From an uncultured Methanosarcinales archaeon (GTDB taxonomy: Archaea > Nanobdellota > Nanobdellia > Woesearchaeales > CAYVYK01), in contig CAYVYK010000001.1 of assembly GCA_964455675.1 (NCBI GenBank), positions 76,463 to 140,462 of the forward strand: DNA of 64,000 bases. The letters are read 5' to 3'. The stretch's first letter is position 1. Each line of letters opens with the position of its first letter. The notes under the pieces were generated by a model that did not search any database, had not been told where the DNA came from, and was given only the letters and a program-made list of their open reading frames with translations. Below are positions 1 through 55,283 of the stretch, piece by piece. A program made the translations under genes and the position numbers.

Positions 1-207
1 AGCCCTCTTGATATTGGTGCACGGATCGATATTGAGGGCTTTGGAACCTATTGGTATCAGTATGATCGGTATAACGAACTAAAGCCGATCGCGGGTATTA
101 GTAGGTATGAGACGTATAGTCTTCATCAGAACGCGGTGTTCGAGAACGGGACGCGAACGCGCACCCATATCGAGCTTATTGCCGAGAGCAAGGTGCTTCC
201 ACGATGA
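1..207 (+). CDS. 3' end of a CDS running in from the window edge; hypothetical protein, probably part of the pilin-like operon
   Basis: Frame 1 is open from base 1 (SPLDIGARIDIEGFGTYWYQY...ESKVLPR) to TGA at 205-207, which overlaps the next ATG (ATGA coupling). Confidence 0.65.
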   Translation, partial: SPLDIGARIDIEGFGTYWYQYDRYNELKPIAGISRYETYSLHQNAVFENGTRTRTHIELIAESKVLPR

Positions 208-683
208 GACGGATTGGTAAGAGGGGGATTTTGTGGCCGATGGTGATGGCAGGTGCCTTGCTCGGCATCAGTCTTGTGCTCGTGATTAGCTATGCGTATT
301 TTGGTTTGATCGCAAAGCACGTTATCGAAAAGGCACAAAGTCCTGATATCGATGCGGAAAAGAGCTCGTTTCTTCCGCTACTCCTGCAGAAAAAAGTTGG
401 TAATGGTGTCCTTGCGGACGTTATTGCAGACGGGGAATTTGATGTGGTGAAGCGTGAGATAAATGAGTGGCTTTTCGTGAGGTTTGACAAGAATATTGAC
501 TGGAACTTATATGTTGGCGGAACAGAAGTTGCGGATAACCAGCTTGTCGGATTCATCAAGGGTAGAGAGTTTGTTGCGTATATTCCAAGCGATAAAGGTC
601 CGATAAAAGTTGAGCTTGAGGTGAGCATGGATGCGTGGGATGGTGAGGTAAAACGGCCTTTTTTTGATGGGGTGATACGGTGA
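204..683 (+). CDS. Prepilin-like protein with class III signal peptide, 159 aa
   Basis: N-terminus MRRIGKRG|ILWPMVMAGALLGISLVLVISYAYFG: basic leader, Gly, then a hydrophobic helix. Translationally coupled to both neighbours. Confidence 0.75.
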   Translation: MRRIGKRGILWPMVMAGALLGISLVLVISYAYFGLIAKHVIEKAQSPDIDAEKSSFLPLLLQKKVGNGVLADVIADGEFDVVKREINEWLFVRFDKNIDWNLYVGGTEVADNQLVGFIKGREFVAYIPSDKGPIKVELEVSMDAWDGEVKRPFFDGVIR

Positions 684-1822: not shown

Positions 1823-2509
1823 CTAACCAAAGTGGATGACAAGTTTGTCCAGGAGAGCATTGCTAAACCATTCTGCCCGGGTGATATTTCCGACGAGTAC
1901 CCCTCCCTTCTGCTGCCATACTCCCCCGTCCGCTGGAGGTATAAATCTATCTGTTTGGTCTTCAATTTTGAAGTAGAAGATGCCGTCCTTGAGAGGAATG
2001 AATCGTGCGGTAAGTTCCTGCTCATAATTGGGTCCCCATACGATCTGGGTTTCTGGCATTGCGGTGACCCATTCCTGATCAACGAAGATGTAGATCCATG
2101 GTGTTTCTCCTTCGAATTTTTCCATGATGAATATTTCCATGATGCCGTTCGTTGGATCCATGTTGGGACCGATTTCAACGATTGCCACTCCTTCATCCAC
2201 AGCGTAGGTGCCAAAGAATATTCCTTTGTAAAGTCCGTAGCTCTGGAATGCGGTGAATACTCTTCCATCATGGTAACTGATGATGCCCCGTTCGTTATCA
2301 TACGTCGCGCGCTGGCCGCTTGCTGCAGGGACGTCCACTCGGGAGTATGTTGGTTCCTCAACAATCCAGTTCTTGGGGTTTGAAAAGTATGAGGGATCAT
2401 TGCGCTCGTGGGTAATGATCAGTCGTATTCCCCATCCTAGGAGGAAGATGATAATCCCTACGATGATGACATACTTAGCGATGTTGACAAGTTTTTGTTC
2501 AAGGTTCAT
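1823..2509 (-). CDS. Membrane-anchored hypothetical protein, 228 aa, last gene of the minus-strand pilin operon
   Basis: Single N-terminal hydrophobic helix (YVIIVGIIIFLLGWGIRLII) followed by a beta-rich domain; starts 4 nt after the stop of the 1000-aa gene. Confidence 0.75.
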   Translation of the reverse strand: MNLEQKLVNIAKYVIIVGIIIFLLGWGIRLIITHERNDPSYFSNPKNWIVEEPTYSRVDVPAASGQRATYDNERGIISYHDGRVFTAFQSYGLYKGIFFGTYAVDEGVAIVEIGPNMDPTNGIMEIFIMEKFEGETPWIYIFVDQEWVTAMPETQIVWGPNYEQELTARFIPLKDGIFYFKIEDQTDRFIPPADGGVWQQKGGVLVGNITRAEWFSNALLDKLVIHFG

Positions 2510-2513
2510 GGAA

Positions 2514-5500
2514 TCATCCGTTCAATTTGTTCGCATTTGAGATTTGTTCGACTGGATCCGAAACGTCGGTGTTTGGCCACTTCTGCCAGAATTCCGTGAT
2601 GGCCCCGCGGATCCCTGCATCCGCGGCAGCGACGGGTACAAGCGTGGGGAGAAGTGCCGCTCCGATCGGTGCTGTGATTGGTATGACTGTTAGGACAGGA
2701 ACCGTGATAGAATATGCGATCTGCAGTCCCGAGAGCGCGCTTTGCACATTTTCACTTGCGGGGAATCGGCCGTAGCAGTAGTTGATTTCTCCCTCAGCGA
2801 GTACGTACGGTTTTGGTTTGATGAGGAGGCATTCCGTGCTGTATTCTTCCCAGTCGCTTGGGCTTCCGGTCACAAGGCTGCTCCAGTAGTGCTGGACTCC
2901 TTCCCATGTGCTTCGATCAACACATTCTTTTACAGCCATGCTGTAATCCACGTTCTGTGCGATCAGTTGATCACTCTTCATGCTGTTCGTGAGCTTGTTT
3001 TCCGAGGGCCGTGAATGAAGCATTGCGCTGACCTTTCGCGCGTCTTCTTCGCTGATATCCGGATTCTTGAAGGCGAGCGTTGTGGGCATGACGTCAATGA
3101 AACCTCCACCAAAATTGAAGTGCAGATTTTCCTTTTGCGTGAAGCATTTGCACATCGCTTTTTCGACCTTAAGGTCGGTCCTGCAGGGGCTCACGAGATA
3201 GAACCGTTTTGTTGGAACGTCGTCGTCATTGTACCGCTCATGCAGCGCGATATAGAATTTTTCCGCGGCAGGTGAGAGCGGGTAGTCTCTGCTTGTGCCT
3301 AGGGCCATGGGTGTGCTCACGGAAAGGGTATTCATTCCTGATGGCGTGAAGTGGCTGTACATATCATCGAGTTTTTGGCTGACTACTCCGGCCATGAGGA
3401 GGAATGTCCATCGCTTTCCATACATCCACTGGAATGCGTGCGCTCCCTGCGCGAGAGGATTAAGAGTTGAAGGGGAGAGTTTGAGCATGATGGGCAGTAC
3501 CGGTCCATCGATCCATCCCCCGGTGGGAACAGGCATCCTGCTCACGGTATGCGCCCCCCATTCGGAGAAGAGCTTTGCCATGGACTCGTGCGGCACTCCG
3601 GAAAGCGCTGCTTCCGCAGCTGTTTCATCAATGACCCATGCGCGCTTGAATATTCCTTCCTTCGTAAAGAGGCTTGATGCGCGCTGTTCGTACGCTTTCA
3701 TCGCTGCGGTCTGATAACTTTTCGGGAGCTGTGAGAGTCCTTTCGTTGCCTGTTCGAACGCTTCTTTTGTCATCTCATCGACTGCTTCTTTGGAGAGTTT
3801 CTCTCCTGATTCATCAAGCATTCTGTTGAGGAGGTTGTAATAGGATAGTTCTACTGCCGCTTCCTTGAGGACCGCTCGAGATAGCGGTTTAGTCATTCCA
3901 TCCGCTGCTTCTTTGATGATTGTTTTAGAGAGCGCTTCGACCTCTTCTGCCGTCATTTTTTGCACTCCTTCCTCCCCATACTCTTTGAGGATGAGTGGCA
4001 CGACTGATTCGAAGTGTTGCGCCGCTGCTGTTTCGATTTCAGAGATCGTGACTTTCGTTGTTCCTCGTTGTGCGGCTCTGACGGCGTCCTCCATCGCCAT
4101 GACAAGCGCGGTGTCAAGCTCGCTTGCGGCTGCACTTCCAATTTTTCCGCCGTAGAGTGACGCAATCCGAGCTTGGGTTGCGGACAGTTTGATGAATGCT
4201 TCAGTTCCCTCTTTTGTGTATGTTGTGCTGAGTTCTTTGAAGACCGTTTCCGTGGCGCCCTCCATGAGGTTCTTGCTGATTTGCTTGCCTGCTCCTGGCG
4301 CGAACTTGAGGCCTATGAATTCTATGCTCGCCGCAACGACCATGTCTCGCCCGATATTCCAGAGTGAGTCGGTGACATCAAACGTCCAGTGGGCTTCAGG
4401 CCCTTTGGGAAACTGTTCGTAGTATACGAGATACTGGGGTTTCCCAAATGAGGTGATAAAGGCGCTGTCTGCCGTCTGTTGTGGCATCCCAAATCCGCAC
4501 ACCATGCATGAGTAGTCTGTTTTGTCGCACGCAACTTGGATTCCTTCGCGTATAGTGACGCCGCCCATGCATCCGCCTGCAGGTAACGTGTAATAGTCTC
4601 CCGCGAACGGATTGATGGTGTCAAGTGTGTCTCCTACGCCCGTCCAGAACCCGTCCCGATTCACACTTCCTTCTCCCGCCGCGTCCTTTGCTGTCGGCTG
4701 GAGGAGGAATCTCGCCCATGCTGTGCTGTGGCCGTCTTGGTAATAAATTGGAATTCCTCGCCCGCTTGCTTCTTCCGTAATGTGTCCTTGTTTTCCGCAA
4801 TAGTAGACTTTGAGGTATGGACATTCAAGAACTGATGGGCTGCTCTGGCATTTAAGGGGATTTGCGGGATCATACGTTGCAAGGTCGCTTCCGTCGAATT
4901 TGTCTCCATTTGTCGTCTGCTTGTCACATGCTGGTGTTCCGTCTGTATATTCGACATGGATGCCAAAATTGTACATCGTTTCAAATCCATCAACGCGTTT
5001 CTCTTCATAATACTGGGGATGCGACGTAAGGACATCTTTATCATAGATGTATATGTAGGGATTGAGGTTGGAAAACATATCCTCACCGGAGAACGTGCGC
5101 TGCACGTACATGTCCGTGTTGAAGAATTCACTGACGAAATCGATGTCCGCCCAGTATTCGACGCGGACCCATCCGATTTTTTTCTGAGTATCAGTGAATG
5201 GATTATCTTCTGGTGTTTGTGTTACAACAGATACGTCTTGCCCTGATGATACGCTGTTGATCGCCATGACAAGCGCCTTCATGGAATCATCAACGATTTT
5301 CTCTTCCAATGAGAGCTGGGTTTCATATGGCGTGAATCCGCTCCCATTTGTTATTCGCCCGATTTGTCTCCCGGGGCTTTCCTTGCCAAAGAATCCAGCA
5401 TAACCGACATCAGTGATGATGCGTACGCCCCAGTTGACAAGCACGATAATGACAAGGAGCCCGAGAAGTATCGTGAGTATTCCTGAAAATGTGAATCCGA

Positions 5501-5516
5501 TTTCTCCTCGTCGCAT
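2514..5516 (-). CDS. Giant prepilin-like protein, 1000 aa, with a central Ala/Glu/Lys-rich helical region and a hydrophobic C-terminal segment
   Basis: MRRG|EIGFTFSGILTILLGLLVIIVLVNWG leader; Cys-containing domains flank a Cys-free helical block of about 280 aa; C-terminal IAYSITVPVLTVIPITAPIGAALLPTLVPVAAA. Confidence 0.8.
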   Translation of the reverse strand: MRRGEIGFTFSGILTILLGLLVIIVLVNWGVRIITDVGYAGFFGKESPGRQIGRITNGSGFTPYETQLSLEEKIVDDSMKALVMAINSVSSGQDVSVVTQTPEDNPFTDTQKKIGWVRVEYWADIDFVSEFFNTDMYVQRTFSGEDMFSNLNPYIYIYDKDVLTSHPQYYEEKRVDGFETMYNFGIHVEYTDGTPACDKQTTNGDKFDGSDLATYDPANPLKCQSSPSVLECPYLKVYYCGKQGHITEEASGRGIPIYYQDGHSTAWARFLLQPTAKDAAGEGSVNRDGFWTGVGDTLDTINPFAGDYYTLPAGGCMGGVTIREGIQVACDKTDYSCMVCGFGMPQQTADSAFITSFGKPQYLVYYEQFPKGPEAHWTFDVTDSLWNIGRDMVVAASIEFIGLKFAPGAGKQISKNLMEGATETVFKELSTTYTKEGTEAFIKLSATQARIASLYGGKIGSAAASELDTALVMAMEDAVRAAQRGTTKVTISEIETAAAQHFESVVPLILKEYGEEGVQKMTAEEVEALSKTIIKEAADGMTKPLSRAVLKEAAVELSYYNLLNRMLDESGEKLSKEAVDEMTKEAFEQATKGLSQLPKSYQTAAMKAYEQRASSLFTKEGIFKRAWVIDETAAEAALSGVPHESMAKLFSEWGAHTVSRMPVPTGGWIDGPVLPIMLKLSPSTLNPLAQGAHAFQWMYGKRWTFLLMAGVVSQKLDDMYSHFTPSGMNTLSVSTPMALGTSRDYPLSPAAEKFYIALHERYNDDDVPTKRFYLVSPCRTDLKVEKAMCKCFTQKENLHFNFGGGFIDVMPTTLAFKNPDISEEDARKVSAMLHSRPSENKLTNSMKSDQLIAQNVDYSMAVKECVDRSTWEGVQHYWSSLVTGSPSDWEEYSTECLLIKPKPYVLAEGEINYCYGRFPASENVQSALSGLQIAYSITVPVLTVIPITAPIGAALLPTLVPVAAADAGIRGAITEFWQKWPNTDVSDPVEQISNANKLNG

Positions 5517-8060: not shown

Positions 8061-8309
8061 ATGAAGAAAGCGCAGGGTATCTCTATTAATGTGATTATCA
8101 TTGCTGCGATTGCAATTCTTGTACTCGTGATCTTGGCAGTGATTTTCCTAGGCTACGTAAAGAACTGGACTGGTGACGTAAGCGCTTGTGAGAACAAGGG
8201 CGGTCAATGCTTCAGTGAAGGAACATGCCCGGAAGGCTGGGCTCCATTGAGCAACAAGTGTGATACAGAAGGAGCGGTCTGCTGTTCTGACACGGGTCTA
8301 GGGCAGTAG
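8061..8309 (+). CDS. Small prepilin with a 6-Cys C-terminal head, 82 aa
   Basis: MKKA|QGISINVIIIAAIAILVLVILAVIF leader; head CENKGGQC...C...C...CC; RBS GAGGTG upstream. Confidence 0.85.
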   Translation: MKKAQGISINVIIIAAIAILVLVILAVIFLGYVKNWTGDVSACENKGGQCFSEGTCPEGWAPLSNKCDTEGAVCCSDTGLGQ

Positions 8310-8317
8310 GTGTGCGC

Positions 8318-8566
8318 ATGGCAAAGGGAGAGAATCTCTCTTTGAGTACGATCGTGATAGCAGCGATTGTCGTGATCGTCCTCATCGTATTGGTCATTAT
8401 TTTTTCAGCGCGCATTGGGTTATTTGGTAAAGGTATTGAGGACTGCAAATCAAAAGGTGGCGTCGTAAAGAGCCCAAATGATGATACTCCGGGTCTTGCA
8501 TGCTATCCTATTCAGTACGATAAAACCACAGGACAGCCGACGAACTACTGCTGTCTGACCCCGTGA
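8318..8566 (+). CDS. Small prepilin with a 4-Cys head, paralog of 8061..8309, 82 aa
   Basis: MAKG|ENLSLSTIVIAAIVVIVLIVLVIIFS leader; CKSKGG...C...CC head; AGGTG upstream of the ATG at 8318. Confidence 0.8.
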   Translation: MAKGENLSLSTIVIAAIVVIVLIVLVIIFSARIGLFGKGIEDCKSKGGVVKSPNDDTPGLACYPIQYDKTTGQPTNYCCLTP

Positions 8567-10380
8567 GCATGGAAAAATACTACCTTGTCGGACTGTGTCT
8601 GATATCCTTACTTGTGCTTCCTGCATGTGATCTTGAATCCACAGGAAGGGCGATTTTTCTGACATCTCCAGTGTCGACAACGAAAGGAACATCACTGGAA
8701 TCAAAGCCCGCAGCTGCGATAACTCCATCACCAGATATTCTTCTTGTCCCGCTGGAAATTGGAGGTGCTGGTACATCACTTATGGATAATGGAGTAGTTG
8801 ATGCCCCTACACTCACAGATATTGGGCTTAGTTTAGACAAGTCACCAAACCAGGACTATTCGGCTGATGATGATATGGAGCCCGTGTGCATTTCAGACAG
8901 TGTGTGTTATGATAGCAATCCGGCGACGCTTGATCGCTGCATTGGAGGCGAATGTGTGCATACGCTCCGCGCGTGTGAGCAGTTCGGGTTTGTCTGCGGT
9001 GAGCACCAGGTGTGCCCCGCGGGAATGGAGTACATCGCTGCCGATACCATGCACTGCTGCCTGCAGTGTGACACTCTGCCATACTGTGGAGATCTGGTGT
9101 GCCAGGAAACGGAATCATATAGTTCCTGCCCAGCGGACTGCGATCCTGAGGATGTTACCTGTCCGAATGGAGTTTGTGACGCTGGTGAGACAAGCACGTC
9201 ATGCCCAGCGGATTGCCCCATGACTGGATGCGTTGATTCTGATAATGGTGTATACCCTGACAATCCTGGTGGCGTTGACTACCTTGGTGATACATTCCCC
9301 GACATCTGCGCGATGTGCGAAGGTGAAGAATGCAGTTATTTGCAGCCCGGCCAGACGGGAAACACCCTGTCTGAGAAGTATTGCACTCCTCAAGGTTTTG
9401 ATCATCAGATTATTGACTGCCCGTGTTATTATGATCCAAGGTATGTGGAGTATGATGAGGAGGGTAGTCCTTTTGTTGGATATTTTGGGTACTGTATGGA
9501 CGACTCACCTCCTGATGAGCCGGATGATTCATGTGGTGATGGGATGTGTGTGTATCCAGAGACTCCGTTCTCATGCGCATCCGACTGTCAGCAGGCGACT
9601 GCTCACTGCCCGAACGGTATGTGTGAAGTGTCAGAGTCTCCATCATCCTGCCCAGAGGACTGTATTGTCCAGCAGGCGCCTCCCCCTCCAACAGACACTG
9701 TTGCCGATCAATCACCCCAAAATCAGCAGGTGCAAGATCAGCCGTGTGTGAATTGTATGCAGCGAATCCCTGAACAGTTGTTGTGTACGTCCTACACCTT
9801 ATCGCTCGAGAACTCCCTAAGCTATGAGGGATTGAGGATATACATTCTTGGAGCAACAGCAAGGTCCGCAACGCTCATGACAAGCAAGGAGCAGGTGCTG
9901 AATGTTGAAGAGTTCAATTGGTATAAAGTGAATGATGCGTTCAACTTCTATGTGAAGCAGATCACTGTGCAAGAGGTGCCTTACGTCAAGGTTGAGGTCG
10001 TCATCCAGATTTGTGGTTGTGGTGATGGACTTGATAATGATGAGGATGAATTGATCGATTACCCGGCTGATGCTGACTGTTCATCAGAGAGGGATCCTGA
10101 AGAGTCCGCAAAGTGCGTGGGTTCCGGGCTTCCAATTGATGGTAGACTGTCTCAGCTTGAGTGCTGTGAGACCCTGGAGATGCTCTCTCCGATGAGGAAG
10201 GACCTTCCGAGCCGAATGGGATATTGCTGGCCTAGCGGAATGTGCGGCGACCAGAAATGCGATACTCCTGAGGATTCCCGCAATTGCCCAAGTGACTGCC
10301 ATCCTCCTGAGGATCGTGGTACGTTCCTCGATAGGGTGTTAAAGCAGATATTTCACATCGACGGTCTTGTTGTGCACTAG
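8563..10380 (+). CDS. Secreted or lipid-anchored Cys-rich repeat protein, 605 aa
   Basis: Signal peptide ending LVLPA|C; five CG[DN]xxC...E...CPxDC repeats; a CGDGLDNDEDELIDYPADADC acidic motif. Confidence 0.8.
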   Translation: MSMEKYYLVGLCLISLLVLPACDLESTGRAIFLTSPVSTTKGTSLESKPAAAITPSPDILLVPLEIGGAGTSLMDNGVVDAPTLTDIGLSLDKSPNQDYSADDDMEPVCISDSVCYDSNPATLDRCIGGECVHTLRACEQFGFVCGEHQVCPAGMEYIAADTMHCCLQCDTLPYCGDLVCQETESYSSCPADCDPEDVTCPNGVCDAGETSTSCPADCPMTGCVDSDNGVYPDNPGGVDYLGDTFPDICAMCEGEECSYLQPGQTGNTLSEKYCTPQGFDHQIIDCPCYYDPRYVEYDEEGSPFVGYFGYCMDDSPPDEPDDSCGDGMCVYPETPFSCASDCQQATAHCPNGMCEVSESPSSCPEDCIVQQAPPPPTDTVADQSPQNQQVQDQPCVNCMQRIPEQLLCTSYTLSLENSLSYEGLRIYILGATARSATLMTSKEQVLNVEEFNWYKVNDAFNFYVKQITVQEVPYVKVEVVIQICGCGDGLDNDEDELIDYPADADCSSERDPEESAKCVGSGLPIDGRLSQLECCETLEMLSPMRKDLPSRMGYCWPSGMCGDQKCDTPEDSRNCPSDCHPPEDRGTFLDRVLKQIFHIDGLVVH

Positions 10381-10843
10381 GGTCCCAGATAAGGTCGAGG
10401 AGTTCCGGATCTGACAGGAATGCTTCTTTCTTGATTTCGTCAATGAGGTAGTGCACTTGTCTCTCTTTGATGTCGAATGATTCGTCGAGTCTTTCGAGGA
10501 ATTCCTCAAGTTCCTTGATGTTGCGGTAGACACACTCGCAGAGAAAGTCATAGCCGTTGTTTATCTTATAGAAGGTATTGACGTGCGGGTGCTTTGTCAT
10601 GTACTCCCTGAATCTGTCGCGGTCAGATTTGCTGATGCGAAATGCGACGTGCGCCATTGTAAGAAAACCAAGCGCGGAAAAATCTATGAGGAGTGTGGAC
10701 CGTCGAACAAGCCCGCCATACTGCATATGCAGTTTTTCAAAGATTGTGGATATGGGAACTTTTGTCTTTTTGCTGATATTGGTCAGGCTTTCCCTGCCGC
10801 TCTGTCGCAGGCAGCTGATGATGAGCAAATCCTTTTTTTTCAT
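10232..10843 (-). CDS. Lrp/AsnC family transcriptional regulator
   Basis: N-terminal HTH (DLLIISCLRQSGRESLTNISKKTKVPISTIFEKL), linker IDFSALGF, and RAM domain (HPHVNTFYKINNGYDFLCECVYRNIKELEEFL); RBS AGGTGA. Confidence 0.9.
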   Translation of the reverse strand: MKKKDLLIISCLRQSGRESLTNISKKTKVPISTIFEKLHMQYGGLVRRSTLLIDFSALGFLTMAHVAFRISKSDRDRFREYMTKHPHVNTFYKINNGYDFLCECVYRNIKELEEFLERLDESFDIKERQVHYLIDEIKKEAFLSDPELLDLIWDPSAQQDRRCEISALTPYRGTYHDPQEDGSHLGNCGNPQEYRISGRRTFR

Positions 10844-10962: not shown

Positions 10963-11544
10963 CTAAGGTAGTGACTTTCGCTCACACAGCCATAGCGCGA
11001 GGCTTAGTACGCCCCGGTCCGTGGGGATTGGTTGCACTTTTAGAGTATACGTGGTGCATTGCTGCATACCAACGACATTGCTTTTGCGAAGGAGCAGCTC
11101 CCCATTGTTTGGTGAGCAAGTCTTCTGCGAAGTATCCCAGCCAGGGCACGCGCATCCTTGCTTGTTTGAGTCCCAGTCGCAGAATACGAGAAAGTAATCC
11201 CTGTCAGGATACTTCTTCTCGATGGATTCTTGGAGCATTGTCGTGACAGGGCTATCGTCAGCCGCAAGATACTGTAGTGAAGTATAGCCGCTCACATCGC
11301 AGATGATAGGCTGGTTGTACGAAGCGATATCTTTAAGGAGTGTCTCAACAGTAGCCCCATTGCATTCCGTCGTCGTGCGAAGCATAACGGTGATAAAATT
11401 TGTCGCGTATTCTGTGAGGTCAACGCGTTCCTTGAGGTCAGATGGTGGTTTCATGGAAAGGCTGAGGAAGATGAGAAGACCAATGCTGAAGAGTACCATG
11501 ATGATCGCAATGCCCATGATTTCCATTTGGCTACGCTTATTCAT
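10963..11544 (-). CDS. Prepilin-like (minor pilin) protein, 193 aa
   Basis: MNKRS|QMEIMGIAIIMVLFSIGLLIFLSL leader; Cys-containing globular domain. Confidence 0.8.
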   Translation of the reverse strand: MNKRSQMEIMGIAIIMVLFSIGLLIFLSLSMKPPSDLKERVDLTEYATNFITVMLRTTTECNGATVETLLKDIASYNQPIICDVSGYTSLQYLAADDSPVTTMLQESIEKKYPDRDYFLVFCDWDSNKQGCACPGWDTSQKTCSPNNGELLLRKSNVVGMQQCTTYTLKVQPIPTDRGVLSLALWLCERKSLP

Positions 11545-12019
11545 TTTGGTACACCGTGACGTTCAGGAGTCCAAATCCGCTCGTTTTCGTAGTGGGGTCA
11601 TACACAGTTACTGGAACTATGGTAGTGGACCTACCGATTTCCCGTCCTGGATTAAGCATAAGCGAGTATATCCGAAAGTTCCGGCCAGGCGGTGGATAGA
11701 TTTGCTGGAGCGTAATCTCGCTGTCTCCAAAGAGTTCCGCGTAGCTTTGCTGAAATGCCGAATGATCCGTAACAAGCTTGTTGAACTGCTCGATCTTGAG
11801 ACTGTCAAAGCAGAGGAGTTGTTCTTCCACGCACTTAAGTTCGGGAAGAAAGAGCGCTTTTTGTGCTGTCTGGATAGAGAGCAGTTTGTTTGCGCGTTCA
11901 AGATCTTGGAAATACTGGCGTTCTTGGTATCTGCTGTACATTGTTGTTCCAATCATGAGGAGAAAGAAGAAGACGACCATGACGGCGAAAGTTTCCATCA
12001 TCTTCATCTGTGCTTTCAT
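11537..12019 (-). CDS. Prepilin-like (minor pilin) protein, 160 aa
   Basis: Start at 12019 (TAATG overlap with the upstream stop): MKA|QMKMMETFAVMVVFFFLLMIGTTMY. Confidence 0.8.
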   Translation of the reverse strand: MKAQMKMMETFAVMVVFFFLLMIGTTMYSRYQERQYFQDLERANKLLSIQTAQKALFLPELKCVEEQLLCFDSLKIEQFNKLVTDHSAFQQSYAELFGDSEITLQQIYPPPGRNFRIYSLMLNPGREIGRSTTIVPVTVYDPTTKTSGFGLLNVTVYQNE

Positions 12020-13203
12020 TAGTAGACCTCGATACATGAGTTGAGATTGAGTTCGAAATTGAGTTGGCTGAATTCTCCAAGTTTTGGCACCCATGTGGCG
12101 TGCGCGGTGTTAAAGTCCTCGTAATATTGTGGTGTGATGATGGCGCCCGCTGGGAGCTGTGGAGGAAGGCTCTGGATGACTCCCGTGCCAACAGGAGTGC
12201 CTTGGAAGTTTACTCCCTTGATCGTCTGGTACATGAGCCTGTGGAGTGACTCGCATCGTGCGGCGCCGGTTCCTAGCCCTTCCCAGTAGTGGCTCAGCCG
12301 TTGGCTTCTGTTCGCGAGTACTTCAAGGCTCTGGTTCACGCGTGTGATTCCTTTGATGATGTTGCAGTAGTACATGTTTGGATTCTCAGTGAACACGGCA
12401 CCGAGGAGTCCTGCGGTTCCGACGTACTGCATGTCCTGTATTTGCATGTGTTCCTGTGGGTCAAGCCACTGGAATCGCACGAGTCCTTCGTCAAAGCTTG
12501 ATCCAAAGACGGTGAGTATGGAGATTTCCTCGTTCTCGAAGCTTTCATCAAAGAGTATGACAACATCTGTCGGAGCGTTTGGCATGAGGAGTACGACGCG
12601 TGTTTCATCATAGTGCTCGTTCTCGTATTCCGTGCTGCTTCCCTCAGGGTATAGCCGATAATTGCTGCCTCCGGCATTCTGTATTTCCACAGCCTTGTAG
12701 AGGATGAGATTGGGCCATAGCTGCTCGAGTTTTTGCATCATCTTTACGGAATCTTGGTTTGCTGGGTCATATCCGAAAACGTATCTTATGCTTGGGCTCG
12801 TGATGTACACAAAGTTTGCGACGGTGTACGGAATGCTCCATGGTTTGCTCCACACGACAAGATCTGGTCCTGGTACGATCTGGGGGCCGAAGATGTACTT
12901 GTCTTTGAATGGTTTTGTTACCGTGCTTCCCCTGATGCCGAATGTGCACTCGCATAGTCTTGTGCATCCGAGCAGTAGTGTTGTTTTTGGTACCCTGATC
13001 CTGATTGCGGTGTCTTGCGCGCTCTGTACTCCTGTTGCGATGCTTTCAAGTTCCGTGTTGATCGTAAGCGCGGTTTTTTCCATGGCGAGCGCTTGCTGTT
13101 TCATAAGGAAGTTGAAGAAAAAGAAGATGATAGTTGCTCCGGCCACAAGGACAAATATCCAGTTGAACTGCTCCTGGAACACACCTCTTTTTCCCGTCCG
13201 CAT
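12019..13203 (-). CDS. Prepilin-like protein, 394 aa
   Basis: Start at 13203: MRTGKRG|VFQEQFNWIFVLVAGATIIFFFFNFL; AAAGATATTTAA promoter-like box just upstream. Confidence 0.8.
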   Translation of the reverse strand: MRTGKRGVFQEQFNWIFVLVAGATIIFFFFNFLMKQQALAMEKTALTINTELESIATGVQSAQDTAIRIRVPKTTLLLGCTRLCECTFGIRGSTVTKPFKDKYIFGPQIVPGPDLVVWSKPWSIPYTVANFVYITSPSIRYVFGYDPANQDSVKMMQKLEQLWPNLILYKAVEIQNAGGSNYRLYPEGSSTEYENEHYDETRVVLLMPNAPTDVVILFDESFENEEISILTVFGSSFDEGLVRFQWLDPQEHMQIQDMQYVGTAGLLGAVFTENPNMYYCNIIKGITRVNQSLEVLANRSQRLSHYWEGLGTGAARCESLHRLMYQTIKGVNFQGTPVGTGVIQSLPPQLPAGAIITPQYYEDFNTAHATWVPKLGEFSQLNFELNLNSCIEVY

Positions 13204-13630: not shown

Positions 13631-14260
13631 TTATGACTCGTGTGGATTCTCATACCGCCCAGGATAGTCTGAGATGATGACGGCTTCGCTCCCCTTTCCT
13701 TGGATACGCAGGTACACATTCCCGCGCGGCGCGTAGAAGCAGTTGAAGATGTACGGGCTCGGCACGGTTCCAGGTGTCATCTGCTCGCGGATGGATGTTC
13801 CAACCCGCGCCTTCCCGATATTGTATAATTGTACGTCGATGCTTCCGCTTCGATATACGGCCATGTTATTCTCGGTACATGACATTATTTGTCGTCTCAC
13901 CGTTTCCGGAGGCTTTGATCCTGAGTCAAGGAGTCCCGGCGCTTGAACCGTGTCAAAGTAAGGGGCAAGGACTGTTGCCCAGTCCATTGATGAGCATGCG
14001 GGTCCTGAAAGTTCATAGTTCCAAATGCATACCCTGTTCCACTCGCCGCAAGTCTTGAGCCTGTAGATGTTCACATCAAATGTCTGACCGATTTCTTCGA
14101 CCTTTGCCTTGAGGTCAAGCCCCATCTGGTCGATACAGAGCTGCTGCTGCCTGTCAAGGAGCTCGCTGATCTTTGCGTACCCGTAGATGACGATGACGAT
14201 GAAGATGATCGCCCCCATTAAGTACACGAATGTTTGGCCGATGATTTGTGACTTCCTCAT
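13631..14260 (-). CDS. Prepilin-like protein, 209 aa
   Basis: Start at 14260, 7 nt after the stop of the 1480-aa gene: MRKS|QIIGQTFVYLMGAIIFIVIVIYGYAKI. Confidence 0.8.
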   Translation of the reverse strand: MRKSQIIGQTFVYLMGAIIFIVIVIYGYAKISELLDRQQQLCIDQMGLDLKAKVEEIGQTFDVNIYRLKTCGEWNRVCIWNYELSGPACSSMDWATVLAPYFDTVQAPGLLDSGSKPPETVRRQIMSCTENNMAVYRSGSIDVQLYNIGKARVGTSIREQMTPGTVPSPYIFNCFYAPRGNVYLRIQGKGSEAVIISDYPGRYENPHES

Positions 14261-45493: not shown

Positions 45494-45604
45494 AGCGGGG
45501 AGAGGGACTCGAACCCCCGAATAAACGCTCTCAGCTAGTCATCGCTTGGTAGCTCCTCAGAGCCGTTCTGCAGGCGCTCGCCTTAGCCGCTTGGCTATCC
45601 CCGC
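45494..45604 (-). tRNA. tRNA-Cys(GCA) with a 38-nt intron at about 37/38 (45530..45567)
   Basis: Acceptor stem GCGGGGA/TCCCCGC, discriminator U73, anticodon stem AGCGC/GCGTT, loop CT-GCA-G..A, T-loop TTCGAGT; 73 nt after intron removal. Confidence 0.85.
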
Positions 45605-49068: not shown

Positions 49069-51753
49069 ATGAAAATCACAATGATAGGCACAGGCTACGT
49101 TGGGCTTGTCACAGGAACATGCCTTGCAAACTTGGGCAACAACGTTATCTGTTTGGACATAGACGAGCACAAGATTGAGCAGCTCAAGCGAGGCATTATG
49201 CCTATCTATGAGCCAGGCTTGGGCGATCTGGTTATTCGTAATATGAAGGAAGGAAGGTTATCTTTCACAACGGATAAGCAGCGCGCTATCCAGGAAAGTG
49301 ATATTATTTTCATCGCAGTGGGAACGCCTCCGCGCGACGACGGTTACCCGGACGTTACGTTTGTCGATCAAGCTGCCGCTGATATTCTGAAGTTCATGAA
49401 CGCTGAAAAGATTGTTGTCGTGAAAAGTACTGTTCCTGTGGGTACGAATAGTCGTGTCAAAGAGTTCCTTTCTTCAAGGCAGGATTTTCCGATTCATGTA
49501 GTCTCAAATCCTGAGTTCTTGAGGGAGGGAAAGGCAGTGCGTGATTTTAACATCCCTGATAGAATCGTGATCGGTACAGATTCCACGTATGCAAAGAAGG
49601 TTATGGTTGATCTCTACAAACCGCTTGAGCGTGCGGATAAGCCGATCATTGTGACGGATGTTGCTTCGGCAGAGATTATCAAGTATGGCTCGAATGCGAT
49701 GCTTGCGGCAAGGATCAGTTTCATCAATCTTCTCTCAGAGCTCTGTGAGAAGGTTGGCGCTGATATTAGGGCAGTGGCGAAAGGTATAGGTCTTGATAGC
49801 AGGATTGGTCCGAGGTTTCTTCAGGCGGGCGCAGGCTATGGTGGGAGCTGTTTTCCAAAGGATGTGAAAGCATTGATATCTACTCTTGAGCATAATGCGA
49901 TTCCCTCTGATTTTTTCCAAAGTGTTGAGAACGTGAACGCCCGGCAGAAGGAAAAGGCCGTGGAAAAGCTTCAGTTACTCCTCGGTAATCTGCGAGGTAA
50001 GAAGGTTGGTCTGCTTGGCCTTAGCTTTAAGCCCGAGACTGATGACATGCGTGATGCCCCGTCAGTTGTAGCGGTTCGTCAACTGCAGAGCTACGGAGTG
50101 CATGTTGTAGTATTTGATCCTGTTGCAATGGATAATGCAAAAAGGATTCTACCGCAAGTCCATTTTGCGAATAGTCCCTATGAGGTCTGTGACGGTGCTG
50201 ACGGAGTGATTCTCATGACCGAGTGGGATGAGTTCCGGTCGCTCGATAAATCTCGTATGTTACAGTTGATGAGATCGCCAAATTTTGTTGATGCAAGGAA
50301 CCTGTATGATCCAGCAGAGATGGTACGGCTGGGCTTTAGGTATGATTCGATCGGCAGATTGACGCCAGAAAAGGCAGCAGAGGGAACAGAGGGGATCCTG
50401 CGTCTTCTGCAAAAGTACGGCCAAGAGCATTTGCTCTCATATTGGGACGCGATATCTCCAGAGGAGCGGCAGATACTCATTCAGCAGATATCGTCAGTTG
50501 ATCTCGAGCGTCTGAGAGAGCTTCATATAAATGGTGATGTTGCGGTTCCATCTCAAATCGATCCGTGGGAGGATATTGTTGTTCCAGAAAGCGATCCTGA
50601 ATTGTCTCTGCAGGCAAAGAAGCTTGGAATTCAAGCGATCAAGCAGGGAGAGGTTGGGCTCTTTGTGGTGGCAGGTGGCCAAGGAACAAGGCTTGGTTTC
50701 AAGGGACCGAAGGGGGCGTTTGTCATTTCCCCGATTTTGCAGAAGAGCATCTTTCAGCTTCATGCGGAGAAGATTCGTGCTCTCGAGAAGAGGTATGGTG
50801 TAAGTCTTCCTTGGTTTATCATGACTTCGCCCGACAATCATAAGGAGACATGTGAATTCTTCGCGCTCCATGGTAATTTTGGTCTTTCCGATGTCTTCAT
50901 CTTTCCGCAGGAGATGCTTCCCTCATTGGATATGGATGGCAGGATGGTGCTGAAGTCACCCTACGAGATCATGATGAATCCCGACGGCCATGGGGGCTCT
51001 GTCCGTGCGCTTGCAAAGACCGGGGCTCTTGACACGATGAAACGGCTGGGCATCAAGTACTTGTTCTATTTCCAAGTGGATAACATCCTCATCAACATCG
51101 CAGACCCACTATTTATTGGGTATCACATCCAAAAGAATGCTGAGATGTCCGCAAAGTGCGTCGAGAAAACTGGTCCAGAAGAGAAGCTTGGTGTGTTTGG
51201 AAAGGTGAACGGTAGGCCAGGAGTGATTGAGTATCATGAGCTCTCCGACGAATTGAGGCACGCAAAGGACGCCCACCAAAACGCATTGTTTGGTAAGGGA
51301 AGTATCGCAATCCATGTGCTGAGTACAGATTTTCTTGAGAGGCTGAGCACTCATCCGTCGGATTTGCCATTCCATCGCGCAGTTAAGAAGGCACACACCG
51401 TGCATGGGGAAATTGAGGTAGTAAAATTTGAGAAATTCATTTTTGATGCGCTACCGCATGCAAAGACGATTATGATAATGTGCGTTGACCGCAGCACGGA
51501 GTTTGCTCCGGTAAAGAACGTGACGGGTGTGGATAGCGCCGAATCTGCAATTGAGATGCAGACTGCTCTCTTTGCTGGATGGCTAAAGGATCTTGGTGTC
51601 GTGATCCCTCGTGATAAAAGTGGGAATTTGGAGGGTCACATAGAGATCAGTCCGCTATTCGCTCTTGATAGGGAGGAACTTGCAGAAAAACTTGATCCCG
51701 CAAAGGTTAGGTTTAAACCAGGGATTGGTCTTGCGCTTGATGCCCAAGGGTAG
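49069..51753 (+). CDS. ugd: Fusion of UDP-glucose/GDP-mannose dehydrogenase family domain (about aa 1-432) and UDPGP-family (UAP1-like) UDP-sugar pyrophosphorylase (about aa 440-894)
   Basis: GTGYVGL, SNPEFLREG, catalytic GGSCFPKD, FKPETDDMR; then AGGQGTRLG, PKG, PDGHGG, VDN, KFEKFIFD, FAPVKN. No stop at the junction. Confidence 0.9.
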   Translation: MKITMIGTGYVGLVTGTCLANLGNNVICLDIDEHKIEQLKRGIMPIYEPGLGDLVIRNMKEGRLSFTTDKQRAIQESDIIFIAVGTPPRDDGYPDVTFVDQAAADILKFMNAEKIVVVKSTVPVGTNSRVKEFLSSRQDFPIHVVSNPEFLREGKAVRDFNIPDRIVIGTDSTYAKKVMVDLYKPLERADKPIIVTDVASAEIIKYGSNAMLAARISFINLLSELCEKVGADIRAVAKGIGLDSRIGPRFLQAGAGYGGSCFPKDVKALISTLEHNAIPSDFFQSVENVNARQKEKAVEKLQLLLGNLRGKKVGLLGLSFKPETDDMRDAPSVVAVRQLQSYGVHVVVFDPVAMDNAKRILPQVHFANSPYEVCDGADGVILMTEWDEFRSLDKSRMLQLMRSPNFVDARNLYDPAEMVRLGFRYDSIGRLTPEKAAEGTEGILRLLQKYGQEHLLSYWDAISPEERQILIQQISSVDLERLRELHINGDVAVPSQIDPWEDIVVPESDPELSLQAKKLGIQAIKQGEVGLFVVAGGQGTRLGFKGPKGAFVISPILQKSIFQLHAEKIRALEKRYGVSLPWFIMTSPDNHKETCEFFALHGNFGLSDVFIFPQEMLPSLDMDGRMVLKSPYEIMMNPDGHGGSVRALAKTGALDTMKRLGIKYLFYFQVDNILINIADPLFIGYHIQKNAEMSAKCVEKTGPEEKLGVFGKVNGRPGVIEYHELSDELRHAKDAHQNALFGKGSIAIHVLSTDFLERLSTHPSDLPFHRAVKKAHTVHGEIEVVKFEKFIFDALPHAKTIMIMCVDRSTEFAPVKNVTGVDSAESAIEMQTALFAGWLKDLGVVIPRDKSGNLEGHIEISPLFALDREELAEKLDPAKVRFKPGIGLALDAQG

Positions 51754-52863: not shown

Positions 52864-53562
52864 TTAAACTTGATGGAAATGGTGCTCGGCGCGGGCGATA
52901 TCAGCAGGGCATCCGAGATCGATCCATGAGTCCTGAAGGATCATCACGTGTACGTTCTGTTCTTTGGCGAGGATGTTGATGGCATCTGTGATATAATATT
53001 CTCCGCTGATGCTTGGTTTAATGTGTTTGAGCGCAGGAAAGATGAGCGATGTGAACTTGTAGAGTCCTGCGTTGATAATGTTTGATGGGGGATGAACTGG
53101 CTTTTCGATGATGCGTCGTAGCTTCGTTCCTTGATACTCGAGAACGCCATATTTTTCCGGGCATTCACTGCGCGTTCCGCACACAGTGCAGTCTTCCTTT
53201 GCCTGGATGAGTTGTTGTATGTCTCGTAGAGAGTAGTAGTTGTCGCCGCTGATGACGATGAACGGACTTCCGTCGGTAAACGATTCGGCTGCTGCGATGG
53301 CGTCTCCCGTGCCGAGCATGGATCGCTGCTCGATGTATGTTACATCAAATGCTCCTTTGTAGGTTGTATCAACATAGGTGATGATCTGGTCTTTGAGATA
53401 GTGAACGATAATTCCAATTTCTCGTATGTGTGCTTCTTTGAGTGCGTCAAGGATGTATCCGAGGAATGGTTTGCCGTGGATCGGGATGAGTGGCTTTGGT
53501 CGGTTGTTGGTAAGTTCTCCCATCCGCATTCCTTTTCCTGCCGCAAGGATGACTGCTTTCAT
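52864..53562 (-). CDS. Sugar-phosphate nucleotidyltransferase (GlmU-N/RmlA-like), 232 aa
   Basis: MKAVILAAGKGMRM..LT..RPKPLIPI, LGTGDA, GDN, IIEKP, INAGLY, WIDLG.P.DI. Confidence 0.9.
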   Translation of the reverse strand: MKAVILAAGKGMRMGELTNNRPKPLIPIHGKPFLGYILDALKEAHIREIGIIVHYLKDQIITYVDTTYKGAFDVTYIEQRSMLGTGDAIAAAESFTDGSPFIVISGDNYYSLRDIQQLIQAKEDCTVCGTRSECPEKYGVLEYQGTKLRRIIEKPVHPPSNIINAGLYKFTSLIFPALKHIKPSISGEYYITDAINILAKEQNVHVMILQDSWIDLGCPADIARAEHHFHQV

Positions 53563-55283
53563 TCGTGTTTCTCCACATTTCCATTATTGATAAAGGTTGT
53601 GTCCACAAGACTGATGATCTGTCCTGCGAGCTTTTGTGGATCGTGGCGCAGCAGGTCGCGCTTGTGCCAGAATCGTGTGACCGCTGTTCCTGTCGGGATA
53701 TCGCCAAGAAGGTCCGCAAGTATTGGCGATGTGCCAAGCCGTTCTATCTCCTCAAGGTCAACTTTAACGAGGAAGGATTTTTGCTGTTCGTACTGGTGGA
53801 GAACGTGCAAATCTGGGCTTCGAACGTTGAGCAGGCAGTAATCAATCTTTGCTCCGCATGCACTCTGTACTGATTTGAGATGGTCTGATGCGGTGAAGAT
53901 GTCCGTTTGATATGGTTGTGTCACAATGTTGCAGACATACAGTTTCACGGCTTTGGTTGTTCGAAGCGCTTCTGCAATTCCTGGGATGAGAAGGTTCGTG
54001 ATGATACTGGTATAGAGGCTTCCGGGACCGATGATGATGAAGTCTGCGTCAAGAATCGCTTGTACTGCAGGAGCGTACGCTTCTGGGTGTGTTGGTTGCA
54101 GGTACGCATCAGTGATTCTTGATGGTTTCTTGTCGTGTTCAAACCTCTGCACGACCTGGTCCTCAGATTCGCTCACGGTTCCATCTTCACGCCGAACGCA
54201 GATGTTGATGTCATCAAGGGTTGCGGGGTACACTTTTCCCGAGACATTCAGGATCTTGCTCGCTTCGATAATGGCTTGCTCAAAGCTTCCGGTCATTTTG
54301 GTAAGTCCGGCAATGAGGAGGTTCCCGAGGCTCTGTCCTTCCAGGTTTCCTTCGGTAAATCGATAGTTAAAGAGCTTAAGGAGCAGGTCTTCCGCATCCG
54401 ATAGGGCCACAAGATTGTTTCTGATGTCTCCCGGAGGAAGCATGCCAAGCTCTTTGCGGAGTGTCCCGCTGCTTCGTCCGCTGTCCGTCATCGTCACGAT
54501 TGCAGTGATGTTCTTGCTGTAGTGCTTGATGCCTTGGAGGAGCATGGGCATTCCTGTTCCTCCTCCGATGGCGACGATTTTTGGTCCTTTCTTCAGGTAG
54601 ATTTCTCTATCCGTATGCTCGAGGAGTGTTGCGACGTCACCTAGCGTTTTAATTTCGTAGTCTGGAATCTCGAGTTGGTTTTTCGGGGTGAGAACAGAGT
54701 ATTTTCCATGGAGTAGCCTTGCGGTAATCATGCCAAGCTTGTTCGCTGACTTTATTTCGTTGTCGATTCTGTCCCCGACGCATAAGACCTGTCGTGGTTT
54801 GAGATTGAGCGATCGTAGTATCTTGAGGAATTTTTCTTCTTTTGAAGGATTGGTATCAATGATGATGATGTCAAAGTAGTCGGCAAGGCCGAGGAGCTCG
54901 ACTTTTTTTCCTTGGAACGAGGGATCTCCCGTAGTGACAAGGCAGAGCTTGACATGGTTCTTGAGCTCAGCAAGGAGGTCTGCTGTTTCGGGGAATGGAA
55001 CAATGCCGTGGAGGTGTTCTTCTTGGAGGTATGCTCCTCGTCCAATGGTTCGTAATTCTGCTTTTTTTATTGCAGCAAGCTCGTAGGATTCAAGAAGCTC
55101 ATCGAGGAGCACCGCAAAGTGTGGAGTAGTTATTGCTCGCATCTTTTCGCGAAGATTGTTCGGAGTATCTAGTCTCTGCCTGCCAAGCGCTTCCGCGACC
55201 GCTGCAAGGGCCGCAGGAGTTACCTGTGTAGTTTGGTCAAAAAGCGTGTCGTCAAGGTCAAAGATCACGGCTTGGATTTTCAT
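53559..55283 (-). CDS. Fusion of a HAD-superfamily hydrolase and a YvcK/GlmR (UPF0052/CofD-like) domain, 574 aa
   Basis: HAD motifs FDLDDTL, LVTTG, K, VGDRIDNEI; then KIVAIGGGTG, DSGRSSGTLR...PPGDIRN, GPGSLYTSII.NL, RHDPQKLA. Confidence 0.88.
   Translation of the reverse strand: MKIQAVIFDLDDTLFDQTTQVTPAALAAVAEALGRQRLDTPNNLREKMRAITTPHFAVLLDELLESYELAAIKKAELRTIGRGAYLQEEHLHGIVPFPETADLLAELKNHVKLCLVTTGDPSFQGKKVELLGLADYFDIIIIDTNPSKEEKFLKILRSLNLKPRQVLCVGDRIDNEIKSANKLGMITARLLHGKYSVLTPKNQLEIPDYEIKTLGDVATLLEHTDREIYLKKGPKIVAIGGGTGMPMLLQGIKHYSKNITAIVTMTDSGRSSGTLRKELGMLPPGDIRNNLVALSDAEDLLLKLFNYRFTEGNLEGQSLGNLLIAGLTKMTGSFEQAIIEASKILNVSGKVYPATLDDINICVRREDGTVSESEDQVVQRFEHDKKPSRITDAYLQPTHPEAYAPAVQAILDADFIIIGPGSLYTSIITNLLIPGIAEALRTTKAVKLYVCNIVTQPYQTDIFTASDHLKSVQSACGAKIDYCLLNVRSPDLHVLHQYEQQKSFLVKVDLEEIERLGTSPILADLLGDIPTGTAVTRFWHKRDLLRHDPQKLAGQIISLVDTTFINNGNVEKHE

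Follow-up and report, generated by a model that had tools for sequence, protein, structure and literature searches.

What might an archaeal protein of 1000 amino acids (aa) do that starts like a pilin, continues into a long helical region and ends close to a hydrophobic tail? The question is raised by an open reading frame (ORF) on the minus strand at positions 2514-5516 of a 64-kb stretch of contig CAYVYK010000001.1, hereafter called the window, i.e., the whole stretch of 64,000 nucleotides (nt) that was analyzed. The ORF encodes 1000 aa plus a stop codon (2514-2516). A preliminary description had proposed its product to be a pilus-borne protein that inserts into a host membrane to form a pore or contact channel. 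The best explanation that we can offer, held with slightly less than even confidence, is that the protein is extracellular beyond its first helix and constitutes the large contact subunit of a pilin-like surface assembly.

The closest homologue, P0001 (1008 aa, 46% identity), is encoded on a 6.7-kb contig of assembly GCA_964592665.1, where it has the same neighbors in a five-gene neighborhood that is syntenic with the window. It was the only sequence found in a word-indexed search, even when a profile was used. The rest of the family came from an exhaustive search of 1.84 billion representatives, which yielded 201 relatives at E<1e-3, of which 76 also reach E<1e-10; their lengths are mostly ~600-1700 aa. 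Given a 46%-identical homologue with kept gene order and 201 representative relatives, the ORF is a genuine gene and no chance ORF. The family is widespread, comprising ~200 clusters at 50% identity, and mutual identity is only 20-30% among relatives with the sequon-free helical region described below.

The anatomy of the protein was derived from family alignments and from two AlphaFold2 models, the better of which was based on a 72-sequence alignment (predicted local distance difference test score, pLDDT, 71.8; predicted template modeling score 0.71). The following parts can be distinguished, all on the minus strand:

5388-5516, minus strand: class III (prepilin-type) signal MRRG/EI and the sole true membrane helix, aa 1-43, with a Kyte-Doolittle peak of 2.8
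4377-5387, minus strand: domain D1, β-rich with eight cysteines, aa 44-380, delimited from the alignments and AlphaFold2
4218-4376, minus strand: hydrophobic, Gly/Ala-rich segment HS1 (SLWNIGRDMVVAASIEFIGLKFAPGAG) and, after it, a cationic amphipathic helix, aa 381-433
3459-4217, minus strand: helical arm with about ten helices, each 20-27 residues long; it is rich in A/E/K/L and lacks Cys and sequons, aa 434-686
3348-3458, minus strand: long return helix HS2 (GKRWTFLLMAGVVSQKLDD) running into D2, aa 687-723, with the pLDDT rising to 92
2763-3347, minus strand: domain D2, β-rich with six conserved cysteines, aa 724-918, the best conserved and best modeled part
2589-2762, minus strand: C-terminal helical hairpin of two helices and a turn, rich in Ala/Gly/Val/Thr, aa 919-976
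2574-2600, minus strand: ITEFWQKWP, aa 973-981, with W980 and P981 kept in all or nearly all members of the family

In the region corresponding to aa 381-720, the 72 relatives together contain not a single N-X-S/T sequon, whereas 107±8 would be expected from shuffling. Control motifs occur there at normal frequencies, i.e., S/T-x-N 137 times (107 expected), Q-x-S/T 90 times (92), D-x-S/T 134 times (141), and N-x-x-S/T 101 times (108). The flanking domains are partly depleted, with 72 sequons in D1 and 31 in D2 against 164 and 141 expected, respectively. The window protein and P0001 have one sequon each, at the same position just past the first helix; in the window protein, this is N57-G-S, the sole sequon of D1. 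No such depletion is seen in unrelated ORFs of these loci (219 vs. 240 expected). Several other families encoded in the surrounding gene cluster are depleted, including a 341-aa (5 vs. 28), a 371-aa (14 vs. 40) and a 416-aa family (15 vs. 32) as well as small pilins (4-6 vs. 12), and a neighboring 228-aa family, which is Cys-free, shows no depletion (33 vs. 29). Cysteine makes up 0.06% of the arm in the 72 relatives, as compared with 2.3-2.9% of D1 and D2 and ~0.9-3.4% of cytoplasmic proteins encoded in the window. Since selection against sequons makes sense only where the external oligosaccharyltransferase can reach, the helical block very probably lies outside the cell, and it is very probably under strong selection to stay free of both glycans and cysteines.

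The hydrophobicity of the various segments points in the same direction. Approximate free energies of membrane insertion (dG) were calculated for the best 19-residue window with values of the Hessa biological hydrophobicity scale and without position terms. In kcal/mol, the family median is -2.1 in the N-terminal helix, +5.2 in HS1, +9.2 in HS2, and +4.0 in the C-terminal segment. In the window protein, the N-terminal helix scores -3.6 and the C-terminal segment +4.6 kcal/mol. Thus, the hydrophobicity of the internal and C-terminal segments is too low for ordinary membrane spans, and the tail is no plain membrane anchor, a possibility that the preliminary description had itself named as one that would speak against its proposal. 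We infer that a single real membrane helix is followed by an ectodomain of ~960 aa. An alternative topology would have HS1 and HS2 as transmembrane helices, with the helical block in the cytoplasm and D1 and D2 as extracellular loops. The flanks of the two segments do obey the positive-inside rule, being K-rich after HS1 (net charge +4.0) and carrying K/R before and D/E after HS2. However, neither sequons nor cysteines would be purged from a cytoplasmic domain to the extent described above, insertion would cost ~+5 kcal/mol for HS1 and ~+9 for HS2, and the hydrophobic core of HS2 measures just 11-13 residues. On the sequon, Cys and dG evidence, we reject this polytopic arrangement with a cytoplasmic arm as highly improbable.

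Within the ectodomain, D1 opens with a conserved helix (DDSMKALVMAIN), which is followed by the β-rich Cys domain (Cys at positions 197, 223, 232, 240, 316, 330, 337, and 340). Its N-terminal half is strongly variable in length across the family, and its C-terminal core (aa 311-380, nt 4377-4586) contains the most conserved motif, C..C.VC.F.LPQ...GxPxYLxYYExFPxG...W. The cysteines of D2 are found at positions 778, 789, 791, 865, 896, and 914, and aa 341-777 are without Cys. D2 is further marked by the motifs P.G.N, YYIxL, RFYLxSPC, C.C, AVK.C, and NYCY, and its pLDDT reaches 95. In the better model, D1 and D2 are confident, whereas HS1 and the tip of the hairpin have a pLDDT below 50; the stretch from aa 381 to 433 is below 50 in both models. 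HS1 ends in P.GGK and has a Kyte-Doolittle value of 1.4-2.1 in most relatives. For the 30 residues that follow G402, the net charge averages +4.0, vs. +0.1 for the rest of the arm, and the hydrophobic moment is 0.53 in the family. Over the first two thirds of the arm, the pLDDT is 70-87. The C-terminal hairpin contains 0.9% K/R and 5.1% D/E, with a net charge of -1.8 in the family, and in some relatives its second helix is charged and amphipathic. Glycine zippers in HS1 and the hairpin are not above compositional expectation.

Much of what the preliminary description had read from the sequence is borne out by this anatomy. The ORF and the quoted peptides were placed correctly (DMVVAASIEF at aa 391, nt 4317-4346, and GGKIGSAAA at aa 456), as was the hydrophobic tail LQIAY...AGIRG (aa 931-971, nt 2604-2726). 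The Cys-free block at aa 380-655 (nt 3552-4379) is indeed rich in Ala (14.9%), Glu (11.6%), Lys (8.3%), and Gly (6.5%), besides 8.3% Leu. Its helices are real, although the AlphaFold2 models extend them continuously from aa 381 to ~723 rather than to 655. The tail does contain five prolines (940, 946, 950, 957, and 961), but these are particular to the window protein; the tails of the relatives contain ~3% Pro, mostly at a conserved central TGG..P-type turn. The tail does not end the protein, as had been thought, since the W980-P981 motif comes after it, and even the longest members of the family keep an N[YF]C-hairpin-WP module at their extreme C-terminus. Nor can the tail be the hairpin of the helical bundle, because D2, which had been overlooked, sits between the two. 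The C-terminal segment was also considered as an archaeosortase-type sorting signal or general anchor. This option was discarded, as no other surface protein encoded in the window ends in this way, and as the hydrophobic segment precedes the WP motif, an order opposite to that in PGF-CTERM-type signals.

The helical arm is the least conserved part of the protein. The D1 core, HS2 and D2 are 58-64% identical to those of P0001, as compared with 38% for the arm, and the spacing between the motifs of D1 and D2 ranges, seemingly bimodally, from 229 to 591 residues. The arm therefore measures ~110 to 470 aa, a roughly four-fold variation, and some members contain internal duplications. Because of this variability, the poor conservation, and a composition like that of designed helical bundles, the arm could be a mere spacer, which weighs against a specific contact role. 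A passive structural protein can accordingly be envisaged, its arm serving as a spacer or stalk and its hydrophobic segments being hidden inside a homo- or hetero-oligomer. Such a protein would stay on the surface of the producing cell as a scaffold of a pseudopilus- or bindosome-like assembly, with no foreign membrane engaged. This reading is also consistent with the charged, amphipathic hairpin of some relatives, as expected of a helix pair packed on protein, and with the modeled position of the WP motif and the hairpin base beside D2, albeit with moderate confidence in the model. Tight oligomeric packing would equally account for the avoidance of sequons. However, the complete, family-wide purge exceeds the depletion in the globular domains, the hydrophobic segment and the amphipathic helix of charge +4 are conserved, K/R are nearly excluded from the hairpin, and HS1 and the hairpin tip are unpacked in the models. 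The sequon purge, the charge pattern and the unpacked segments go beyond the needs of a simple spacer, and archaeal surface stalks are generally thought to be glycosylated, not glycan-free. A purely passive role is, in our view, possible but not probable.

The same features bear on the proposal of a pore. HS1 with its cationic helix and the K/R-poor hairpin, both unpacked in the models (the hydrophobic segments are indeed not confidently packed), together with the exclusion of glycans, would look like a latent membrane-active module. As the cationic helix and the hairpin are oppositely charged, they could also shield each other or pack against partner subunits. It is possible that the family protein inserts into membranes or forms a pore. 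In its strong form, this idea holds that the protein is delivered on a pilus-like fiber and that its hydrophobic segments enter the membrane of the host, thereby forming a pore, translocon or fusion bridge from symbiont to host. The pilin-type N-terminus and the gene cluster discussed below agree with it, as do the extracellular helical region free of glycans and Cys and the cationic amphipathic helix adjoining HS1. Marginally hydrophobic Gly/Ala-rich segments would pass the translocon of the producer yet could enter a target membrane. Also, the lifestyle of archaea of the DPANN group involves host contact, and nanotubes or bridges of unknown protein composition have been imaged (PMC11329633).

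Direct comparisons with pore formers and translocators do not encourage this proposal. A weak match to NCBIfam model NF011889 (the SseC-type translocon of type III secretion systems, T3SS) was found at aa 515-592 (E 4.6e-4, 19 bits vs. a cut-off of 540) and recurs in 3 of 25 family members (E<=0.01), which counts in its favor; the match lies, however, in an A/E/K-rich stretch. Pfam gave no colicin, translocator or toxin match in the window protein or the 25 relatives. When the family profile was compared with all PDB sequences, the top matches were de novo designed helical proteins (DP221/DP622/PP507, 6xh5), and no T3SS translocator or colicin appears by name among the matches listed. As designed helical proteins rank first, and from a comparison with the literature on these proteins, the signal is compositional and does not reflect homology. 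A phmmer search against PDB sequences gave just a 17.7-bit chance match (3eua). Foldseek searches, which the preliminary description had suggested for pore-forming and translocator folds, returned nothing below E=0.04 with both models against PDB and with the better model against BFVD. Talin, HIP1R, and Bcl-2-like bundles were matched by the poorer model only and at chance level (E 0.5-0.9 for the Bcl-2-like bundles). A tblastn search with aa 376-700 found no match at E<=10 in 72,556 plasmids, and one with the whole protein found none in 50,697 phage records. By these searches, no relationship to any pore former, translocator or fusion protein is detectable, and the resemblance to colicins and translocators that had been proposed for the helical block is not sustained.

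The architecture can nevertheless be compared with that of known systems. Colicin-type domains, which follow the same logic as Bcl-2 and the diphtheria T-domain, are alike in having amphipathic helices and a ~40-aa Ala/Gly-rich hairpin without basic residues. However, they are ten-helix bundles of ~200 aa with a buried hairpin, whereas the helical region discussed here measures 340 aa, is variable in length, and is parted from the hairpin by a β domain of 200 aa. T3SS translocators (SctE, i.e., SipB/IpaB/YopB/SseC) are likewise helical proteins with hydrophobic segments that are borne on the tip of a filament, but no T3SS genes are present in the window, matches in PDB, Foldseek and plasmid searches are lacking, and the hydrophobic segments lie outside the region matched by NF011889. 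Class I viral fusion glycoproteins are similar in architecture only, i.e., in the succession of a binding domain that varies, a hydrophobic segment rich in Gly/Ala, a long helical region poor in glycans, and a C-terminal hydrophobic element. They differ in that the C-terminal element is not a competent transmembrane anchor in the family protein, which is anchored N-terminally, and no cleavage site is evident before HS1; matches in BFVD and PDB were not found either. Together with the charged hairpins of some relatives, the unconserved length of the arm and the lack of a pilus motor near the gene, these differences make the strong form of the pore proposal improbable.

Returning to the contact subunit that we favor, its anchoring in a pilin-like assembly is suggested by the N-terminus and by the gene neighborhood. 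The N-terminus, MRRG followed by EIGFTFSGILTILLGLLVIIVLV, matches the archaeal class III (prepilin) pattern. Of 117 complete N-termini in the family, 93 have a [KR][GA] site at most 16 aa upstream of the hydrophobic helix, and 76 have FlaFind-like +1/+2 residues besides. The family gene occupies the center of a conserved cluster of ~15 genes, nearly all of which encode proteins with class III-type N-termini (M-x-K-[KR]-[GA] and then a hydrophobic helix), and the cluster is present in most related loci that have enough flank. The prepilin N-terminus noted in the preliminary description is thus supported by relatives and neighbors alike. Archaeal class III proteins, such as type IV pilins and the sugar-binding proteins of the Sulfolobus bindosome, have the same short, basic N-terminus, [KR][GA] site and clustering. 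In contrast to the 1000 aa found here, type IV pilins measure ~100-200 aa, and the family protein additionally possesses further hydrophobic segments and a hairpin at its C-terminus. Glycosylation is usual in archaeal pilins and archaellins, whereas the family protein is strongly depleted of sequons. In bacterial type IV pili and type II secretion systems, minor pilins and adhesins at the tip (PilY1/PilC, GspK, TcpB/CofB-type) provide a bulky contact subunit with a pilin-type anchor or partners, beside small minor pilins. The concept is alike, but no similarity in sequence or structure was detected, the domain is archaeal, and the assembly machinery is unlinked.

Several observations weigh against the assignment to a pilin-like assembly. 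Pilin or archaellin profiles were not found in Pfam or NCBIfam even at E<=5, phmmer with aa 1-384 gave no match at E<=10 among PDB sequences and thus no solved pilin, and Foldseek revealed no pilin fold at E<0.2. In the AlphaFold2 model, a helix at aa 10-43 precedes the β-rich domain. The Walker A motif of a secretion-type ATPase was found neither in the 64-kb window nor in 29 related loci (28 plus L001), where the scan reached within 10 kb of the family gene, and no prepilin peptidase or platform protein was recognized among the ORFs of the window and locus L007 scanned with Pfam. The genes for the assembly ATPase, platform and peptidase may be located elsewhere in the genome. Since none of them is linked, incorporation of the 1000-aa protein into a fiber is purely inferred, and the term pilus-borne can be derived only from the N-terminal signal. 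The approximate nature of the dG values, on which the ectodomain topology partly leans, should be counted here as well.

With these reservations, the contact subunit might work as follows. The disulfide-type domains D1 and D2 would form a head, of which the variable N-terminal half of D1 may recognize a partner cell or surface. Together with the neighboring small pilin-like proteins, the 1000-aa protein would build a short fiber or bindosome-like structure. The glycan-free arm, with HS1 and the cationic helix at its start, and the acidic, Ala/Gly-rich hairpin could together make up a tightly packed or shielded module, which would allow the protein to assemble with partner subunits and to dock closely on the envelope or membrane of the partner.

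In related loci, the cluster begins with homologues of the window genes at 13631-14260, 12019-13203, 11537-12094, and 10963-11544, followed by regulators. Next come two to four small genes for Cys-rich pilin-like proteins, the 341-aa gene, the family gene, and the 228-aa gene, and then several further genes, of which the final ones are homologues of window 204-683 and 680-1795. In the window, the following members are found:

1823-2509, minus strand: downstream partner gene (228 aa) with an N-terminal anchor and no Cys, adjoining the family gene in 23 loci including L001
5657-6682, minus strand: upstream partner gene (341 aa) with class III signal MKKRG/EI, the upstream neighbor in 17 loci including L001
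6686-6808, minus strand: mini pilin-like ORF (40 aa, MQTKRG/MLWG...) with a counterpart in L001
204-1795, plus strand: two conserved cluster genes (159 and 371 aa) with class III-type N-termini
8061-8566, plus strand: two small genes for Cys-rich pilin-like proteins (82 and 84 aa), present in 2-4 copies in related loci
10232-10843, minus strand: Lrp/AsnC regulator of the cluster
10963-11544, 11537-12094, 12019-13203, and 13631-14260, minus strand: four cluster genes with class III-type N-termini

By eye, the C-terminal end of the 371-aa protein resembles a fibronectin-III-type domain. Pfam, NCBIfam and PHROG gave no informative domain in the 1000-aa protein, its neighbors or the 25 relatives. 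Other loci also hold an AbrB/MazE-like protein among the regulators of the cluster, e.g., the 300-aa protein with an AbrB/MazE-type N-terminal domain at L007:5970-6884 (minus strand), which has equivalents in L012, L002, and L006. The same three loci contain equivalents of another cluster member, a ~600-aa membrane protein with a weak APH (phosphotransferase/kinase-like) match at L007:4140-5996 (plus strand), and neither gene has a counterpart in the window. Another pilin-like cluster protein, of ~367 aa and with the N-terminus MISKKG..., is encoded at L007:15166-16269 (plus strand), with equivalents in L012, L002, L006, and L018; its counterpart in the window would fall left of position 1. 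It shows a weak match to Amidase_3 (N-acetylmuramoyl-L-alanine amidase; E 5.8e-5, 23.6 bits vs. a cut-off of 27) and could, from its sequence, be a wall hydrolase on a pilin-type anchor.

Inside the cluster of the window, positions 8563-10380 (plus strand) encode a secreted protein of 605 aa with 8.3% Cys, for which no family match and no homologue in related loci were found. Beyond the cluster, seven consecutive large secreted proteins (1480, 3041, 966, 1217, 482, 1317, and 1405 aa) are encoded at 14268-43968 (minus strand). Six of them contain 3-5% Cys, and the only domains recognized by Pfam are TSP3 repeats and CarboxypepD_reg domains. Two of the seven are enriched in sequons (15 vs. 6.6 and 16 vs. 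9.2 expected). Further along, a 111-nt tRNA at 45494-45604 (minus strand) was matched by Rfam and missed by ARAGORN, and its size suggests an intron. Two fused genes are also present, i.e., a UDP-glucose dehydrogenase with a UTP-glucose-1-phosphate uridylyltransferase domain at 49069-51753 (plus strand), and a HAD hydrolase with a CofD-like 2-phospho-L-lactate transferase at 53559-55283 (minus strand).

A pattern scan of species-representative genomes identified 28 loci with the family gene. They belong to metagenome-assembled genomes (MAGs) entitled Woesearchaeota, Nanoarchaeota/Nanoarchaeia or Aenigmatarchaeota, or bearing a generic title ('uncultured archaeon', 'uncultured Methanosarcinales'), and in several generically entitled loci the gene order is that of the Woesearchaeota loci. 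The MAGs called 'uncultured Methanosarcinales archaeon' include those of L003, L004, L006, L008, L009, L017-L019, L024, and L029. The mapped ones among them (L003, L004, L006, L018, and L019) have the gene order of Woesearchaeota MAGs, with L006 corresponding almost gene for gene to L002. These titles probably represent a placeholder or wrong taxonomy. As judged from titles and gene order, all 28 loci are in DPANN MAGs or carry the same gene order. The window itself can be assigned to an archaeon by its markers, i.e., an RPA-type OB-fold protein, RadA, 5S rRNA, a tRNA whose insert has the size of an intron, and an RNase P p30-like gene (weak Pfam match). The family is unnamed and apparently confined to DPANN archaea within the sampled genomes. 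In the literature, neither the 1000-aa family nor a mechanism of such a kind was found described, and only general statements on DPANN archaea were encountered. Islands of unrecognizable, putative 'dark-matter' pilins in DPANN genomes have been remarked upon (Makarova et al., 2019; PMC6393860). Surface proteins with a class III signal and uncharacterized DPANN pilin islands were already known, and the 1000-aa family would be an addition to them.

The DPANN archaea are tiny symbionts that depend on contact with their hosts, and the proteins involved in this contact are largely unknown. It is conceivable, although unlikely to be right, that the family represents the part of a DPANN contact apparatus that breaches the host envelope, with the arm threading through the host surface layer and carrying HS1, the cationic helix and the hairpin into the membrane of the host. 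If this were true, the family would make the pore or cytoplasmic bridge that has been seen by cryo-tomography and whose proteins are so far unknown. Whatever its precise role, the full removal of sequons from a helical region of 340 residues is an unusually clean selection signal. The surface so marked has to be kept bare, be it for tight assembly, to pass through a lattice, or for contact with a membrane. The family is, thus, a concrete candidate for the host-contact machinery, and glycan-free zones in surface proteins may offer a simple computational marker of constrained regions in other uncultured archaea.

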